Notes: a model not told the origin generated them from the sequence alone. A stretch of 64,000 nucleotides of DNA from Escherichia coli (GCF_003790525.1 NZ_CP033635.1), one strand, 5' to 3'. Positions 4,381 to 12,633 are shown, counted from the first letter of the stretch. A program made the numbers and translations.

Positions 4381-6075
4381 ATGCATCCCACAGGCCCGCA
4401 TCTCGGGCCTGATGTTCTGTTTCGAGAGTCCAAAATGAAAGTGACATTAACGTTTAACGAACAACGTCGTGCGGCGTATCGTCAGCAAGGGCTATGGGGC
4501 GATGCTTCGCTGGCCGATTACTGGCAGCAGACCGCTCGTGCGATGCCAGACAAAATTGCCGTGGTCGATAATCATGGTGCATCATACACCTATAGCGCGC
4601 TCGATCACGCCGCGAGCTGTCTGGCAAACTGGATGTTGACGAAGGGTATTGAATCAGGCGATCGCATCGCATTTCAACTGCCTGGCTGGTGTGAATTTAC
4701 CGTTATCTATCTTGCCTGCCTGAAAATCGGTGCGGTTTCCGTACCGCTGTTGCCTTCCTGGCGGGAAGCAGAACTAGTATGGGTACTCAATAAGTGTCAG
4801 GCAAAAATGTTCTTTGCACCGACGTTGTTTAAACAAACGCGTCCGGTAGATTTAATCCTGCCGCTGCAAAATCAGCTTCCACAACTACAACAAATTGTCG
4901 GCGTGGACAAACTGGCTCCCGCCACCTCTTCCCTCTCATTAAGTCAGATTCTCGCCGACAATACCCCACTGACTACGGCGATAACGACCCACGGCGATGA
5001 ATTAGCCGCTGTGCTATTTACCTCCGGAACCGAGGGTCTGCCAAAGGGCGTGATGCTAACGCATAACAATATTCTCGCCAGTGAGCGGGCTTATTGCGCG
5101 CGGCTGAATCTGACCTGGCAGGATGTCTTTATGATGCCTGCGCCACTTGGTCACGCAACGGGCTTTCTGCATGGCGTAACAGCACCATTTTTAATTGGTG
5201 CTCGCAGCGTGTTGTTAGATATTTTCACTCCTGCTGCGTGTCTCGCGCTGCTTGAGCAGCAGCGTTGCACCTGTATGCTCGGCGCAACGCCGTTTGTCTA
5301 TGATCTTTTGAATTTACTAGAGAAACAGCCCGCAGACCTTTCAGCGCTGCGTTTCTTTCTTTGTGGCGGTACCACAATCCCCAAAAAAGTGGCGCGTGAA
5401 TGCCAGCAGCGCGGCATTAAATTATTAAGTGTTTATGGTTCCACAGAAAGTTCGCCGCATGCGGTGGTGAATCTCGATGATCCTTTGTCGCGCTTTATGC
5501 ACACCGATGGTTACGCTGCCGCAGGTGTAGAGATTAAAGTGGTCGATGGCGCACGCAAGACCTTACCGCCAGGTTGCGAAGGTGAAGAAGCCTCGCGTGG
5601 CCCCAATGTGTTTATGGGGTATTTTGATGAACCTGAATTAACCGCCCATGCCCTGGATGAAGAAGGCTGGTATTACAGCGGCGATCTCTGCCGCATGGAT
5701 GAGGCTGGCTATATAAAAATAACCGGGCGCAAGAAAGATATTATTGTCCGCGGCGGCGAAAATATTAGCAGCCGTGAAGTGGAAGATATTTTATTACAGC
5801 ATCCTAAAATTCACGATGCTTGTGTGGTTGCGATGCCCGATGAACGCTTAGGTGAACGTTCATGCGCTTATGTCGTGCTGAAAGCACCGCATCATTCATT
5901 ATCGCTGGAAGATGTAGTGGCATTTTTTAGCCGTAAACGGGTCGCGAAATATAAATATCCTGAACATATCGTGGTAATCGAAAAACTACCGCGCACTGCC
6001 TCCGGTAAAATACAAAAATTTTTGTTACGTAAAGATATTCTTCAACGGCTGGAACAAACATGCGTTGAGGCATAA
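4381..6075 (+). CDS. fadK: Short-chain acyl-CoA synthetase
   Basis: 564-aa ORF with AMP-binding motifs (FTSGTEGLPKGV, ..YGSTE.., ..GYIKITGRKKD..). An internal start at MKVTL (about 4435) is also possible. Confidence 0.85.
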   Translation: MHPTGPHLGPDVLFRESKMKVTLTFNEQRRAAYRQQGLWGDASLADYWQQTARAMPDKIAVVDNHGASYTYSALDHAASCLANWMLTKGIESGDRIAFQLPGWCEFTVIYLACLKIGAVSVPLLPSWREAELVWVLNKCQAKMFFAPTLFKQTRPVDLILPLQNQLPQLQQIVGVDKLAPATSSLSLSQILADNTPLTTAITTHGDELAAVLFTSGTEGLPKGVMLTHNNILASERAYCARLNLTWQDVFMMPAPLGHATGFLHGVTAPFLIGARSVLLDIFTPAACLALLEQQRCTCMLGATPFVYDLLNLLEKQPADLSALRFFLCGGTTIPKKVARECQQRGIKLLSVYGSTESSPHAVVNLDDPLSRFMHTDGYAAAGVEIKVVDGARKTLPPGCEGEEASRGPNVFMGYFDEPELTAHALDEEGWYYSGDLCRMDEAGYIKITGRKKDIIVRGGENISSREVEDILLQHPKIHDACVVAMPDERLGERSCAYVVLKAPHHSLSLEDVVAFFSRKRVAKYKYPEHIVVIEKLPRTASGKIQKFLLRKDILQRLEQTCVEA

Positions 6076-6087
6076 GTCATAAATAAT

Positions 6088-6117
6088 AAAGCACCTTACA
6101 CGCAAGGTGCTTTATTC
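6088..6117. terminator. Bidirectional rho-independent terminator between convergent fadK and the SDR gene
   Basis: Hairpin aaagcacctt-acacgc-aaggtgcttt, flanked by an A-run upstream and T-rich sequence downstream. Confidence 0.55.
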
Positions 6118-6125
6118 AATCTCGA

Positions 6126-6869
6126 TTAACCACGTCCGACATACGGCATATTATTTGCCATAATCGTTATTTCCAGCACATTCGTGGTTACTGGCAACTG
6201 AGCCATCATCTGAATGGTCGCTGCAACATCAGCAACATTCATCATATCTTCCGCTTTAATAGCACCATCTGCCTGATAAACGCCCTTACGCATCCGATTC
6301 GATAATGTCGTTTCCGCATTGCCGATATTAATTTGCCCGCAAGCGATATTAAATTTGCGACAATCCAGGGAAATGGCCTTGGTCAACCCGGTAACAGCAT
6401 GTTTCGACGCCGTGTATGGCGCAGTATAGAGGCGCGGCGTCAGTGCAGAAATCGACGCATTGTTAATAATACGTCCTCCCATTGGCTGCTGCGCTTTCAT
6501 GATTTTAATCGCCTCTTTCGAACACAAAAATGTCGAATGAATATTGGCGTTAAACACGCGCGTCCACTCAGTAAACTCAACCTCTTCAATACTTTTTGCC
6601 GGACTATTATTGCCCGCATTTTTGAACAAGAGATCCAGTCGACCAAAAAGAGCCTTAATCTCGGCAAATAGCGCAACGACAGCGGACTCATCCGTGACAT
6701 CGGCAACCAGAGGAATAAAGCGTTCCTTGGCTAATCCTTGTGCACATTGCTGTAAGGTTTCTTCGTTACGCGCGGCAACAATAACTGTATATCCAATGTC
6801 ATAGAGTGCCTTTGCTGCTGCGTAGCCGATGCCTTTACTTCCCCCCGTCACCAGGGCAATTTTTGTCAT
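6126..6869 (-). CDS. Short-chain dehydrogenase/reductase (SDR) family oxidoreductase
   Basis: 247-aa ORF with TGGSKGIG Rossmann motif, NAG motif and catalytic YTASK. No equivalent gene is recalled at this position in K-12. Confidence 0.8.
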   Translation of the reverse strand: MTKIALVTGGSKGIGYAAAKALYDIGYTVIVAARNEETLQQCAQGLAKERFIPLVADVTDESAVVALFAEIKALFGRLDLLFKNAGNNSPAKSIEEVEFTEWTRVFNANIHSTFLCSKEAIKIMKAQQPMGGRIINNASISALTPRLYTAPYTASKHAVTGLTKAISLDCRKFNIACGQINIGNAETTLSNRMRKGVYQADGAIKAEDMMNVADVAATIQMMAQLPVTTNVLEITIMANNMPYVGRG

Positions 6870-6881
6870 AGCCAGCTCCGC

Positions 6882-7361
6882 CTATAATAAACTCATGTCG
6901 ATTTTCACGACTGTTTTTTTGATTTTTTCCACGTTATCGATTTTATAGCATGCCCGATGCACTTCTTCCGGAAAGACCACCACAAACTGTCCTGGTGTCA
7001 GCGTGATGATTCGATCATTAATACGTTCATCAGCATAAAAAATAACATCACGGTCGCCCAGGTGGCTTTCTACAACCGAGTTTTCCCCATCATCAAAATC
7101 CACACAAATCCGCTCTTCTCCGGCAATTAAAAAATGGACATCAAGATATTTACGATGAACTTCCGGTCGACATTCATGTAGTGGTTTAGTCATCGGTTCA
7201 ACCACGGTATAAAATATTGAGTCATCCTGAATAAAAACCTTCTCTCCCACAGGAAGACTATTCAGATCATGTTGTGAAAGATACTCAATGACACGAGTGA
7301 TGACAGGATGAAATGTCCGCTTTTGTTGTTCACTAAGATACGCGATATCACCATAAATCAT
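6882..7361 (-). CDS. YhcH/YjgK/YiaL (DUF386) family protein
   Basis: Track ORF 6882..7496 trimmed to the internal ATG (MIYGDIAYLSEQQKRTFHPVI...), about 159 aa. An RBS-like aaggcgga lies upstream, and the longer ORF would overlap the upstream dehydrogenase. Confidence 0.65.
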   Translation of the reverse strand: MIYGDIAYLSEQQKRTFHPVITRVIEYLSQHDLNSLPVGEKVFIQDDSIFYTVVEPMTKPLHECRPEVHRKYLDVHFLIAGEERICVDFDDGENSVVESHLGDRDVIFYADERINDRIITLTPGQFVVVFPEEVHRACYKIDNVEKIKKTVVKIDMSLL

Positions 7362-7371
7362 ATTTTCCGCC

Positions 7372-8330
7372 TTATTGAGTAACAGGGGTAATAACTGGCC
7401 GTCCGCTAAAGAAAGCCTGTAAGTTATCAAATACCAAATCCGCCATCGCATTAAACGTTTCGCTCGTACCACTGGCGATATGTGGCGTAAGGACAACGTT
7501 ATCCAGCGACATTAATTGTTCTGGCACATGTGGTTCGTTGGCATAAACGTCCAGTGCCGCACCAGCAATGATGTTATTTTGCAGAGCATCAATCAGATCG
7601 GTTTCGTTCACCACTGATCCCCGGGAAATACTGATCAAATGCCCGGTTTTCCCCAGAGCCTGCAGCACCGTTTTGTCAATAACGCCGCGCGTACTCGCGC
7701 CGCCTGGCAGCGTCAGAACGAGGAAGTCCACCGCTTGCGCCAGAGAAACCAACGAATCATGCGCCGTCCAATCAGGTTTGTTATGCGGTTTTGGGTCGAA
7801 ATAGTGAATTTCCATTTCAAATGCTGCTGCACGGCGGGCTACTGCGTTACCAATGTTCCCCAGACCGACAATTCCGCAACGTTTGCCACTCACTTTCGTC
7901 GCCATCGGGAAACGCCCCTCGTTTGGCCAACGGCCGTCACGAACATAACAATCGGCAATGTTAATACGTCGGGCAACATTGAGTAACAACGCTATACCAA
8001 TGTCTGCGACACAGTCATTAAGCACGCCAGGTGTGTTGGTGACGATAACGCCATGCTCCCTGGCTGCCACGATATCAATAGGGTCATAACCCACACCGTT
8101 GCTGGCAATAATCTTCAGATTCGGAATTTTTCTATTAGCGCCCGAGAAGCCCCCATTACCGGATTACCACTGGTCACCAGCGCCTGAATATCCGGCGCGA
8201 TTTGCGTGTAAAAAGCGCCTTCATCAGCCAGTTCCCACAGGCGATATGCGGTGAAGGTAGATTCAACTTTAGCCATTAAGCGGTCACTTAATTTGCCGAC
8301 GATCGCCACTTGAATATCTTTTAAGTTCAT
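7372..8330 (-). pseudogene. D-isomer-specific 2-hydroxyacid dehydrogenase (glyoxylate/hydroxypyruvate reductase-like), disrupted by a frameshift
   Basis: The N-terminal 71 aa (8115..8330, ..ALIEKFRI*) and the remaining 240 aa (7372..8094) are in different frames. Reading the second frame upstream restores the expected ..PNLKIIASNGVGYD.. motif, consistent with a 1-bp deletion near 8118-8127. Confidence 0.7.
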
Positions 8331-8365
8331 ACACTATTCCTTGATTGATGTTTGTCGCAGGCCAC

Positions 8366-9766
8366 TTACCACAGGCCAAGAATTTTCCACCACACCGCCC
8401 CCAGTCCGAACCAGATGGCAATGTTCAACAACATGACGATAAAGCCCAGCCGCCACCATTCTCGTTGCGAGACATAGCCAGCGCCGTAATAGATCACTGC
8501 GGGTCCGTTGCCATAATGCGAAATGCCGCTCATCAGGTTAGTGACGAACGCCAGTGACAGAGCCGCCATCATCGGCGGTGCGCCAGCAGCAACCGAGACG
8601 CTGCCAAAAGCGGCATACATCGCCACTACATGCGGCGTACTTCCGGCAAAGAAATAGTGGGAATAGCAGTAAACTATCAGCAACACCGTCAACGTTATCT
8701 CCCACGGAATGCCGGTGAACAGCGCCGAGGTTGTGACGGCAAACCATTTGAACAGGCCAAGCTGATTGAGCTTATCTGCCATACAGATCATGACTCCCAG
8801 CCAGACCAGAATGTCCCAGGCCCCCTTCTCTGACTGCACATCCTGCCAGGTGATAATCCGGGTCATCAACATTAAACAGACGCCAGAAAGCGCGACAGCC
8901 GTCGCATCCAGGCCAGTCCATTTCGATGTACTCCAGGCCAATAATGAAAGCAGGAAAATGCCAATTGTCACGCGCTCATCACGGGTTACCGGCCCCATTT
9001 TGATAAGTTCTTCCTGTGCCAACGCTTTGGCTTCTGGCGTCTTTTTGATCTCTGGCGGGTAGAGTTTGTAAATGACCAACGGCATAGTGATAAAAGCGAT
9101 AATGCCCGGCACCAGTGCGCTTAGCGTCCACATCCCCCATGAGATATCGACAAATAAAGTGCTGGCCGCCAGAGATACAATGAGTGCATTTGGCGCGCTG
9201 GCCGTCATAAACATCGAGGATGAGAGACAGTTGGAATGGAACACCGTCTGCATCAGATAAGCGCCTATTTTACGCGGCCCTTGATCCGGTTCAGATCCAA
9301 AGCTGTTAGAGACACTGCGAACAATCGGGAACAAAATCCCTCCTGCTCGCGCTGTGTTTGATGGCGTTGCGGGCGCGATAATCATATCGCTTAGCGCCAA
9401 TGTATAACCCAGACGCAACGAGCTGCCGCCAAATCCGCGAATCAGCAAATAGGCGATACGCCGCCCCAACCCCGTTTTGATGAATCCTTTCGCGTACAGG
9501 AATGCGGCGACAATAAGCCATACCGTCGTGCTGCTGAAACCTTTTAAGGCTTCGCTGGTTTTCATCATACCGGTCAGCATAATAAAACTGATGGCTATTA
9601 ACGCGATAGCGCCCACCGGCAACGGTTGCAGAATAAACGCCACCACAGTGGTGATAAATATGGCCAGAATGTGCCAGGTTAAGGGTGTTAATCCGTCGGG
9701 GACGGGGAAAAACCATATAGCGAGTGCGACAATCGCACAAATCAGGACTTTCAAATAGCAACTCAT
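8366..9766 (-). CDS. DASS-family anion permease (CitT/TtdT/YbhI-like di/tricarboxylate transporter)
   Basis: About 466-aa polytopic membrane ORF; the track starts at a TTG (9772), the first ATG is at 9766 with an aggga RBS-like sequence upstream. First gene of a four-gene minus-strand operon. Confidence 0.8.
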   Translation of the reverse strand: MSCYLKVLICAIVALAIWFFPVPDGLTPLTWHILAIFITTVVAFILQPLPVGAIALIAISFIMLTGMMKTSEALKGFSSTTVWLIVAAFLYAKGFIKTGLGRRIAYLLIRGFGGSSLRLGYTLALSDMIIAPATPSNTARAGGILFPIVRSVSNSFGSEPDQGPRKIGAYLMQTVFHSNCLSSSMFMTASAPNALIVSLAASTLFVDISWGMWTLSALVPGIIAFITMPLVIYKLYPPEIKKTPEAKALAQEELIKMGPVTRDERVTIGIFLLSLLAWSTSKWTGLDATAVALSGVCLMLMTRIITWQDVQSEKGAWDILVWLGVMICMADKLNQLGLFKWFAVTTSALFTGIPWEITLTVLLIVYCYSHYFFAGSTPHVVAMYAAFGSVSVAAGAPPMMAALSLAFVTNLMSGISHYGNGPAVIYYGAGYVSQREWWRLGFIVMLLNIAIWFGLGAVWWKILGLW

Positions 9767-10023
9767 ATGCAATCCCTGTAGCTGTTTCCCACCGCTCGCG
9801 GAGGGAATTTATCCTGTTTTCTGTACAGCCAGACAAATCAGAAAATCGGTTTTAGTTCGAATAAATTCTCTGAATTACATAATCTGCGCTTATGTCTGAA
9901 TAACGGTGCGGTAATTTTTCATGGCCATATCCCTTTTTATGCTGTGGTTGAAGATAGTATAAAAACGGGACTCATCAGTGACTTCGTGCAATCCAACGAA
10001 CTCTGGACGAAAAAATTACGCAT

Positions 10024-10236
10024 ATGCTTAAGGAAATTGACGTGTGGTCACATTCGGCTTTGAGAAAAAACGGTATCGAGAATTATTCTGTGGAGAGGAT
10101 CGCAAACAAATTAAAATCAGAAAGAACAGCAGCCAATTATTCAGATGATGTCCGGAAACTTTTTATATTGCATGAGCGCGTTTGCCCAAAGCAGGTTGTT
10201 AAAAGGTGGGGATATAGAAATGGACCCGGCGACTGA
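10024..10236 (+). CDS. Hypothetical small protein (70 aa), possibly a gene remnant
   Basis: ATG-initiated ORF (MLKEIDVWSHSALRKNGIENYSVERIANK...) divergent from the transporter operon and followed by a hairpin plus T-run. No clear RBS and no family recognised. Confidence 0.2.
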   Translation: MLKEIDVWSHSALRKNGIENYSVERIANKLKSERTAANYSDDVRKLFILHERVCPKQVVKRWGYRNGPGD

Positions 10237-10252
10237 ACGCCGCCGGGTTTTT
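10224..10252. terminator. Hairpin terminator at the ppsA 3' end (possibly bidirectional)
   Basis: Stem cccggcg/cgccggg followed by tttttattt, located immediately 3' of the ppsA stop. Confidence 0.45.
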
Positions 10253-10254
10253 AT

Positions 10255-12633
10255 TTACTTGTTAAGTTCAGCCAGACTTAACCAGGTTTGCACCACGGTG
10301 TCCGGGTTAAGAGACAGGCTATCGATCCCCTCTTCCATCAACCATGCAGCAAAGTCTTCGTGGTCGGATGGACCCTGACCGCAAATCCCGACATATTTGC
10401 CCTGTTTCTTCGCGGCACGAATCGCCATCGACAGCAGTGCTTTCACCGCATCGTTGCGCTCATCGAACAGTTCAGATACCACGCCGGAGTCACGATCCAG
10501 ACCGAGCGCCAGCTGCGTCATGTCGTTTGAGCCAATTGAGAAGCCGTCGAAATATTCGAGGAACTGCTCGGCCAGCAAGGCGTTGGACGGGATTTCACAC
10601 ATCATGATGATTTTCAGCCCGTTCTCACCACGTTTCAGCCCCTGACGCGCCAGTTCCTCAACCACCGCTTTCGCCTGATCTACGGTACGCACGAACGGGA
10701 TCATGATCTCAACGTTGGTCAGCCCCATGTCGTTGCGCACACGTTTCACTGCTTCACACTCCAGCGCGAAGCAGTCGCGGAAGCTGTCGGAAACATAGCG
10801 GCCCGCGCCACGGAAGCCGAGCATCGGGTTCTCTTCATCTGGCTCGTAACGCTCACCACCGACCAGGTTGGCATATTCGTTCGATTTAAAATCAGAGAGA
10901 CGGACAATGACGCGCTTCGGATAAAACGCGGCACCCAGCGTCGCGATCCCTTCAGTCAGACGACCAACGTAAAATTCACGCGGAGAATCAAAACCTTTCA
11001 TCATCTCGCGGATTTCGTTTTGCAACTGCGGTTCTTGATCGTCAAACTCAAGCAGCGCGCGTGGGTGGACGCCAATCATACGGTTGATGATAAATTCCAG
11101 ACGCGCAAGGCCCACGCCTTCGTTCGGCAGGCAGGCGAAGTCGAAAGCACGATCCGGGTTACCGACGTTCATCATCACCTTCAACGGCAGGTCCGGCATC
11201 GTTTCTACGCTGGAGCTTTTCACGCTAAATTCCAGCAACTCCGCATAGACATAACCGGTATCACCTTCGGCACAAGAAACAGTGACGTTCTCACCGTCTT
11301 TCATCCGTTCTGTTGCATCACCACAGCCCACTACCGCCGGAATGCCGAGTTCACGAGCGATGATCGCCGCGTGACAGGTACGACCGCCACGGTTGGTGAC
11401 GATGGCAGATGCTTTCTTCATGATCGGTTCCCAGTCCGGGTCGGTCATGTCAGTAACCAGCACGTCACCAGGTTCGATGCGGTTCATTTCGCTGATGTCA
11501 TGGATGACTTTCACCGGACCCGCGCCGATGCGATGACCGATAGCACGGCCTTCGGCGATAATCTTACCCTGTGAATGCAGCGTATAACGCTCCATGACCT
11601 GACCGCGTGAGCGCACGGTTTCCGGACGCGCCTGCACAATGAACAGTTTGCCGGTGTGGCCATCTTTCGCCCACTCAATATCCATCGGGCGACCGTAGTG
11701 TTTCTCAATTTGTACGGCCTGTTTTGCCAGTTCCTGCACTTCTTCGTTGGTCAGCGAGAAGATGTCACGCTGTTCCTGCGGTACGTCTTCGATTTTAACC
11801 TGCTTGCCGTGCTCCTGGGTCGGCGCGTAAACCATGCGGATTTTTTTCGACCCCATGGTGCGGCGCACGATAGCCGGGCGATTCGCCGCCAGTGTCGGTT
11901 TGTGCACGTAAAACTCATCCGGGTTAACCGCACCCTGCACGACCATTTCACCAAGGCCCCATGCGGAAGTGATAAACACCACCTGGTCAAAGCCGGATTC
12001 GGTATCAATGGAGAACATCACGCCAGAAGATGCGAGGTCGGAGCGCACCATCCGCTGAACACCGGCGGAGAGCGCCACGCCACGGTGATCGTAACCCTGG
12101 TGCACACGATAAGAGATGGCGCGATCGTTAAACAGAGAAGCAAATACATGTTTCACTGCCACGAGAACGGCGTCAAAACCCTGAACGTTGAGGAAGGTTT
12201 CCTGCTGACCGGCAAAAGAAGCGTCCGGCATATCTTCTGCAGTAGCGGAGGAACGCACCGCAAACGAGGCGTTTTCGTCATCGGCGGAAAGCTGTGCATA
12301 GGCTTCGCGGATGGCGTTTTCCAGCTCAGGCTGGAAGGGAGTGTCGATAATCCACTGGCGGATTTGCGCGCCCGCTTTCGCAAGCTGGGTAACATCGTCA
12401 ATATCCGTTTTATCCAGCAGTTCATAAATGCGCTGGTTTACGCCGCTTTGGTCCAGAAACTGGTTAAACGCGTCGGCGGTTGTGGCGAAACCATTCGGAA
12501 CGGAAACACCCATTCCGGAAAGGTTAGTAATCATTTCACCCAGGGAGGCATTTTTGCCCCCAACCCTGTCTACATCATTCATGCCGAGTTGGTTATACCA
12601 AAGCACCAGCGGTGACGAGCCATTGTTGGACAT
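10255..12633 (-). CDS. ppsA: Phosphoenolpyruvate synthase
   Basis: 792-aa ORF ([34 protein letters not shown]...) with PEP-utilising enzyme domains; length matches E. coli PpsA. Confidence 0.97.

Follow-up and report, generated by a model that had tools for sequence, protein, structure and literature searches.

A 70-codon frame between an accessory permease operon and ppsA of Escherichia coli is probably a chance ORF in a four-part non-coding spacer

Organization of the fadK/ppsA locus

The DNA analyzed here is a stretch of 64,000 nucleotides from Escherichia coli (GCF_003790525.1, NZ_CP033635.1), hereafter referred to as the window, in which an accessory operon headed by an anion permease gene lies between fadK and ppsA (Table 1). 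The presence or absence of this four-gene module corresponds to an indel of about 4.1 kb that extends from the fadK stop region (~6085) to a GGGGAT motif (~10208). The 488-bp spacer that separates the permease from ppsA is 100% identical to that of E. coli strain SMS-3-5, and had been described in the original prediction as an AT-rich segment (9767-10254) harboring a divergently oriented 70-aa ORF (10024..10236), here named ORF70. The coordinates are right, the GC content is 0.416 (41.6%) against 0.494 (49.4%) in the whole window, and an ATG-initiated ORF is indeed found there, on the plus strand, opposite to the permease. Of 5426 complete E. coli genomes, 114 carry the spacer, each as a single copy that is always flanked by the permease and ppsA, and a "distant" blastn search against plasmids and E. 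coli genomes detected no second copy. None of the RefSeq features listed lies beneath the spacer, and a literature search found nothing on the fadK/ppsA accessory locus.

Table 1. Coordinates of the genes and of the spacer elements at the fadK/ppsA locus, counted from the first nucleotide of the window
Feature	Position	Strand	Remarks
fadK	4381-6075	+	
SDR oxidoreductase	6126-6869	-	
YhcH/YjgK/YiaL-family protein	6882-7361	-	
2-hydroxyacid dehydrogenase DH-B	7371-8330	-	
Anion permease (DASS/Na_sulph_symp family)	8366-9766	-	First gene of the accessory operon; RefSeq on identical SMS-3-5 DNA, Pfam
Spacer, 488 bp	9767-10254		From the permease start codon (9766, minus strand) to the ppsA stop (10255); limits match the SMS-3-5 RefSeq annotation
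Proximal 5' leader of the permease operon	9767..9889	-	
Permease Shine-Dalgarno ACAGGGAT	9779-9772	-	
Hairpin TTCCCTCCGC..GCGGTGGGAA	9807-9786	-	GC-rich
CTGTACAGAAAACAGGAT	9828-9811	-	Invariant
10-bp stem-loop in the leader	9873-9838	-	
10-codon mini-ORF (MKNYRTVIQT, stop)	9922-9890	-	Opened by the DH-A start relic
DH-A relic	9890..9935	-	Shine-Dalgarno AAGGGA (9935-9930), N7, then ATGAAAAAT; Shine-Dalgarno and start at 9935-9914
Operon promoter and upstream control block (predicted)	9956..10053	-	Cross-genus conservation, position
TTTTTATACT	9965-9956	-	Conserved block; contains the -10 hexamer TATACT (9961-9956)
TTCG-N10-CGAAG dyad	10001-9981	-	Conserved block; over the -35 position
Palindromic GCATATGCG	10027-10019	-	Conserved block; contains the ORF70 ATG
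ATGTGA	10053-10048	-	Conserved block
ORF70 (MLKEIDVWSH...GPGD), open frame, 70 aa	10024..10236	+	Judged not a gene
Filler DNA, ~170 bp	10054..10223		Module-borne, fast-evolving, no function detected
Terminator-like hairpin ACCCGGCGACTGAACGCCGCCGGGT and T-run	10224..10254		Bidirectional, core; hairpin proper 10224-10248, then TTTTTATTT
ppsA	10255-12633	-	

Some irregularities were recorded within the genes of the module. The DH-B gene of the window carries, at 8124-8125, a 1-bp homopolymer deletion with respect to SMS-3-5 (GGAAATTTTT to GGAATTTTT), which splits it into two ORFs (7372-8094 and 8115-8330) and is either a strain pseudogene or a sequencing error. In Escherichia sp. E4385 (locus L016, 2177-5822), the YhcH-family gene is in three pieces and DH-B in two, and 9 gap openings separate the locus from the window over 8.4 kb; this fragmentation suggests that the module is decaying in the E4385 lineage, or else that the assembly has homopolymer errors. 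As for the YhcH-family gene of the window, a mechanical ORF list places its start at a TTG at 7496 (6882-7496, 204 aa), overlapping the DH-B 3' end; the RefSeq start is equivalent to 7361 (159 aa) and agrees with the Citrobacter youngae orthologue.

The hairpin next to ppsA

The stem of the terminator-like hairpin that closes the spacer on the ppsA side consists of ten pairs, eight of them G-C, and is followed on the plus strand by TTTTTATTT. A terminator scan flagged 10224-10254 on both strands, with the weaker tail on the minus strand. E. coli K-12 is without the four-gene module, and its 56-bp fadK-ppsA gap (b1701/b1702) contains CCCCGGCGACTAAACGCCGCCGGGG and a T-rich run; it is the same hairpin, apart from three or four bases, located directly after the ppsA stop in both strains. 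Because a module-less strain has the same hairpin, the element is not part of ORF70 or of the module, and it is the predicted fadK/ppsA terminator at a convergent gene pair. Hence, the hairpin and T-run with which the original prediction ended the ORF are present, but they belong to the core fadK/ppsA region and not to the ORF. The TGA of ORF70 (10234-10236) sits in the hairpin loop, so that the frame starts in module DNA and ends inside a core terminator, an arrangement unlikely for a genuine gene.

In K-12, the hairpin also ends fadK, whereas in the window fadK has its own hairpin (~6089-6114) beside the SDR gene, so that the old hairpin has no gene left to terminate on the plus strand. On the fadK side, module-bearing strains have a diverged fadK C-terminus (…LQRLEQTCVEA versus …MRRLTQDVCEEIE in K-12), and the interval 6076-6125 of the window contains a convergent hairpin, AAAGCACCTTACACGCAAGGTGCTTT, common to fadK and the SDR gene, that replaces the ppsA-side arrangement of K-12.

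ORF70: length, signals and coding statistics

An ORF of at least 70 aa arises in 621 of 2000 dinucleotide-preserving shuffles of the 488-bp spacer (31%), and in 347 of 2000 (17%) when an ATG start is imposed; therefore, the length of ORF70 is no greater than the chance expectation. No Shine-Dalgarno-like purine run occurs within the 25 nt 5' of its ATG (AACTCTGGACGAAAAAATTACGCAT), in keeping with the weak ribosome-binding site noted in the original prediction, and the promoter scan detected no promoter-like site 5' of the ATG, the plus-strand matches being all inside ORF70 and at chance frequency. A hexamer complementary to the operon strand, TATAAA, could in principle fire toward ORF70. The ATG itself is the center, CATATG, of the conserved GCATATGCG motif: it exists only because it is part of this palindrome upstream of the promoter, which also accounts for a start codon that is kept while the rest of the frame varies.

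The codon log-odds of ORF70, computed with the window's own long genes as the training set, is -0.19 per codon versus +0.25 +/- 0.14 for real genes and -0.23 +/- 0.18 for shadow ORFs; this score is below that of all 145 real-gene windows (70 codons each) and mid-range among shadow ORFs. The pN/pS ratio of ORF70 ranges between 0.33 and 1.21, from 9-14 changes per pair and with a method that ignores transition bias, versus 0.011-0.019 for the permease; it is below 1 in most pairs, on the basis of 4-6 synonymous and 5-9 non-synonymous changes. On these small counts, the frame is under clearly relaxed selection. ORF70 is not called among the PGAP/RefSeq rows listed, and some GenBank submitters deposited it as a hypothetical protein.

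ORF70 across Escherichia lineages

The segment 10040-10224 falls into three sequence classes among the 114 E. coli genomes, with 100% (n=37), 98.4% (n=43) and ~92% (n=34) identity to the window, and base-by-base reading covered representatives (three sequence classes and five loci); the same locus was also recovered from E. whittamii, Escherichia sp. MOD1-EC7003 and Escherichia sp. E4385. The ORF70 frame is intact in the 100% and 98.4% classes. Conversely, the ~92% E. coli allele (34 of 114 genomes) carries a CAG to TAG change at codon 57, E. whittamii a TAA at codon 21, and MOD1-EC7003 a TGA at codon 8, a TAA at codon 21 and a 14-bp insertion, while E4385 and E2586 combine a TAG at codon 57 with an A7 in place of the A6 run that gives a different 27-codon N-terminus and an 83-aa product. 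Of the 6 other versions of the locus examined, all with the same module, 5 thus have premature stops or a frameshift, and 4 still have codons 1-56 open, as has the window allele; depending on the lineage, the would-be protein measures 7, 20, 56, 70 or 83 aa. Hence, among insertion-bearing strains the 70-aa ORF is not conserved, and the idea of a small protein belonging to the module, advanced in the original prediction, is not supported, since the frame is disrupted in most lineages examined.

In one E. coli draft (GCA_001277695.1; locus L015, 1-100), the spacer is interrupted at ~10035 by an IS5-family element, which lies among the upstream motifs of the predicted promoter and in codon 4 of ORF70; the resulting 84-aa chimera is listed in NCBI as a "partial hypothetical protein".

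Homology searches and the origin of the frame

Searches against Pfam, NCBIfam and PHROGs returned nothing credible for ORF70, for the upstream 39-aa ORF or for a frameshift-joined 97-aa version, the top domain matches of these queries being unrelated families at E ~0.05-0.1, and the absence of a recognizable domain reported in the original prediction is thereby confirmed in all three collections. A word-indexed search of 5.8 billion proteins yielded three matches to ORF70, all from the same Escherichia locus, one of which is the read-through chimera with the IS5-family element at ~10035. No match to ORF70 emerged from tblastn against plasmids and phages.

These data bear on the proposal that ORF70, or its common 56-codon core, encodes a small protein that arose recently within Escherichia and is disappearing from some lineages. 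In its favor, both E. coli alleles, E4385 and E2586 have codons 1-56 open, several pairs show a pN/pS of ~0.3-0.6 (small counts), and some pipelines called a hypothetical protein, on 17 contigs. Still, we regard such a gene as very unlikely, considering that the ATG is preceded neither by a Shine-Dalgarno sequence nor, in the scan, by a promoter-like site, that early stops (codons 8 and 21) interrupt the frame in two species of Escherichia and both termini vary by lineage (7, 20, 56, 70, 83 aa), that codon usage resembles that of shadow ORFs, that chance suffices for a frame of such length, which PGAP does not call, and that no homologue outside the locus was retrieved from searches of 5.8 billion and 1.8 billion proteins.

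Alternatively, ORF70 may be what decay has left of a larger gene, for instance one for a divergent regulator of the module, cut at the ppsA junction. Specifically, ORF70 is preceded, one frame off, by 93 codons without a stop (9782-10063), and the addition of one A to the A6 run (10010-10015), a change that is real in E4385 and E2586, opens a 151-codon frame. The frameshift-corrected 151-aa conceptual translation (9782-10236) was compared by exhaustive phmmer with 1.8 billion representative proteins; besides ORFs of the same locus, only three long tandem-repeat proteins matched, which were rejected as homologues since their scores sum ~28 bits per repeat over many identical repeats. Against a remnant, the conceptual protein has no true homologue among these representatives and contains no HTH or other domain in Pfam, NCBIfam and PHROGs, 20% of the shuffles contain 94 or more consecutive codons without a stop, and the frame overlies the conserved promoter and leader, which are intergenic in other genera. 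Moreover, the promoter is flanked elsewhere by unrelated genes, as upstream of it lie malZ in UBA3516, L017 and L022 and a GNAT acetyltransferase gene in C. youngae, and no regulator gene adjoins the module in any genus examined. A gene remnant is thus highly improbable, and the original prediction's suggestion of a regulator remnant is not supported. As malZ is the divergent neighbor in loci of the DH-A type (see below), ORF70 was also tested as a remnant of the malZ 5' end; this was rejected because malZ starts ~160 bp past the GCATATGCG motif and no similarity is present.

Divergence along the spacer and the filler

Between Escherichia lineages, the divergence of 10053-10224 amounts to 0.076-0.134, plus a 14-bp indel, and that of 9767-10052 to 0.021-0.049 (Fisher p = 0.04, 0.007 and 0.002), so that the permease-side half of the spacer is 2-3 times less diverged than the half bearing ORF70. 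For the same pairs, the 4-fold-site divergence of the neighboring genes is 0.06-0.19, close to the value of 10053-10224, which indicates that the ORF70-bearing half drifts roughly neutrally and that the permease-side half is constrained. The filler (10054-10223) has no similarity to DNA of other genera, to plasmids or to other E. coli loci. Regarding the alternative offered in the original prediction, that the frame is simply junction debris from the insertion, the non-gene or debris reading is close to the truth for 10054-10223.

The filler has also been considered as the template of a plus-strand sRNA that would extend from ~10176 to 10253 and employ the orphaned fadK-side terminator, given that two plus-strand sigma-70-like matches (10060-10089 and 10140-10169) precede the strong hairpin and T-run. 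However, two promoter-like matches correspond to the level of the shuffles (1.2 +/- 1.2), the segment is the most divergent part of the spacer, with the 14-bp insertion of MOD1-EC7003 falling within the putative -10 region, its fold is no better than that of shuffled sequences (z = 0.24), and it matches no Rfam family. Such an sRNA is barely credible, and the filler is better viewed as DNA with no function detected.

The predicted promoter of the permease operon

The constrained half of the spacer contains four blocks, namely ATGTGA, GCATATGCG, the TTCG-N10-CGAAG dyad and TTTTTATACT, that are invariant or nearly so, with order and spacing kept, across Escherichia, C. youngae, the Enterobacteriaceae MAG UBA3516 and three metagenome contigs, the latter located by pattern from the dyad and the -10 block. 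The hexamer TATACT matches the consensus in 5 of 6 positions, including A2 and T6, and is invariant in 4 or more genera; from its conservation and position we infer that it is the -10 element of a sigma-70 promoter directed to the permease operon. The corresponding -35, AAGTCA, matches the consensus in 3 of 6 positions, and this is why the promoter scan missed the conserved promoter. The promoter region anticipated by the original prediction would correspond to this block (9956-10053), with the TATACT hexamer on the operon strand.

The poor -35 may point to activator dependence. In addition, the overlap of the weak -35 with the dyad suggests control by a regulator encoded elsewhere, for which the dyad is a likely candidate binding site. 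A CRP site was not assigned at ATGTGA, which on manual reading is a single half-site in all three genera, and a sigma-54 promoter at TGGATTGCACG was rejected because of the misfit of the GG/GC spacing and the lack of the GG in other genera.

The leader and the relics of DH-A

Transcription would start near 9949 and originate a leader of ~180 nt (9767-9949). Immediately downstream of the predicted promoter, the Escherichia sequence aligns with the Shine-Dalgarno and start of a 313-aa 2-hydroxyacid dehydrogenase, DH-A (ATGAAAAATAAACC...), which directly follows the promoter in UBA3516 (L007) and in the loci L017, L020 and L022, where 25-40 nt separate the promoter block from the DH-A start. Specifically, the Escherichia leader still has the ribosome-binding site of DH-A along with the first three codons of that gene, and the C. 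youngae leader keeps the last DH-A codons and the stop (ACCCGGTTGTATAA versus CCCCGGTTGTTTAA). A leader peptide or attenuator was rejected as the function of the mini-ORF, since MKNYRTVIQT is not found in C. youngae and is explained as the DH-A start relic.

The permease-proximal leader matches the region between DH-A and the permease of UBA3516, and the conserved block CTGTACAGAAAACAGGAT and the leader hairpin are found in three genera, lying in UBA3516 between the two genes. For the hairpin at 9807-9786, 92% of the cells of the seven-sequence alignment are paired, with compensatory changes in 3 of 9 pairs, versus 43-66% for slid controls, and its score is reached by 22 of 500 shuffles of the same 7 sequences; this pattern is suggestive of covariation, and the hairpin may function as an element of mRNA stability or translation. 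The folding of the whole leader is no better than that of shuffled sequences (z = 0.01), and an Rfam scan with E up to 1 assigned no family, the top matches reaching 19.8 and 18.4 bits where the gathering scores are 55 and 40.

Origin and arrangements of the module

DH-A is only ~45% identical to the DH-B of the module. In UBA3516, L017, L020 and L022, DH-A lies between malZ and proY, and in UBA3516 and L020 the permease comes next. The promoter of these loci shares with the Escherichia spacer ATGTGA, GCAwATGCG, the TTCG-N10-CGAAG dyad and TTTTTATACT, in the same order and with the same spacing, and the same Shine-Dalgarno and ATG are located downstream of the motif blocks. The two differ in what follows and in their position: DH-A comes immediately after the promoter in the four loci and is gone in Escherichia and C. 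youngae, in which the promoter is followed by a long leader and then by the permease, DH-B, YhcH and SDR genes, and the Escherichia module lies between fadK and ppsA, in contrast to the malZ/proY position of the DH-A loci.

The arrangements met in Enterobacterales include DH-A alone between malZ and proY (L017, 9988-10929), DH-A followed by the permease at the same position (L007, 6439-8864; L020) and the permease alone beside obgE (L009, 1092-2492). In C. youngae (L008, 10001-13642), the full set of permease, DH-B, YhcH and SDR genes is located near a GNAT gene, HigBA and an IS200-like fragment.

Within Escherichia, the history of the module was compared with that of its flanks (4381-12633 of the window versus L002, L003, L005 and L006). 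In the comparison with the second E. coli allele, 4-fold sites are more diverged in the module (0.10-0.12) than in fadK and ppsA (0.06-0.11), and in the comparison with E. whittamii they are less diverged in the module (0.13-0.17) than in the flanks (0.23-0.28). These discordant values suggest that the module has been exchanged among Escherichia lineages by recombination.

Discussion

The reading to which we assign a probability of about 85% is that ORF70 is a non-functional chance ORF and that the spacer is ordinary non-coding DNA with four parts, namely a core terminator, neutral filler, the promoter/operator block of the operon and a relic-bearing leader. On the ppsA side lies the core fadK/ppsA terminator hairpin carried by every E. 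coli, followed by ~170 bp of filler that arrived with the four-gene module and drifts near the neutral rate. Toward the permease, a putative sigma-70-type promoter would combine TATACT with a poor -35 under the dyad and with GCATATGCG and ATGTGA upstream. In other Enterobacteriaceae, the same promoter would drive DH-A at malZ/proY, sometimes followed by this permease. The simplest history would be that the permease, DH-B, YhcH and SDR operon was built behind the DH-A promoter and that DH-A itself was deleted, a loss that would explain the ~180-nt leader, with its DH-A start relic and the old DH-A/permease intercistronic hairpin.

It is unlikely, in our estimation, that the locus holds more than this, either as an undescribed regulatory unit at 9767-10053, with the dyad and the GCATATGC palindrome as binding sites for a regulator whose gene lies elsewhere and with the mini-ORF and hairpin controlling permease translation or mRNA stability, or as a very young, Escherichia-only micro-protein encoded by ORF70. 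On the prevailing reading of a non-coding spacer, the practical consequence is one of annotation hygiene: ORF70, alias HMPREF9530_03802, should not be counted as a gene, and what seemed its terminator is really the core ppsA/fadK terminator; beyond that, the frame matters little. The spacer does give a modest insight into how the accessory operon, a small catabolic one with genes for an anion permease, a 2-hydroxyacid dehydrogenase, a YhcH-family protein and an SDR, was assembled: the operon appears to sit behind the promoter and the start-codon relic of a different, deleted dehydrogenase gene that other Enterobacteriaceae have beside malZ, and the spacer provides studies on the regulation of the operon with a defined candidate promoter, dyad and leader hairpin.

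Two elements of the spacer can be compared with known systems. In operons, intercistronic stem-loops set differential mRNA stability, and the leader hairpin resembles them in being GC-rich, in having no T-run and in its compensatory changes; moreover, it lies between two cistrons in UBA3516, and in E. coli it immediately precedes the ribosome-binding site of the permease. In the 7 sequences compared, it could equally be a DNA operator palindrome. As for ORF70, its exact 70-aa sequence was deposited as a hypothetical protein, HMPREF9530_03802, in E. coli MS 21-1, and it is akin to the spurious "hypothetical protein" calls of AT-rich intergenic DNA, being short, devoid of a Shine-Dalgarno sequence, atypical in its codons, unconserved and without homologues. 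Nothing substantive sets it apart from such calls, and PGAP/RefSeq has no ORF70 call.
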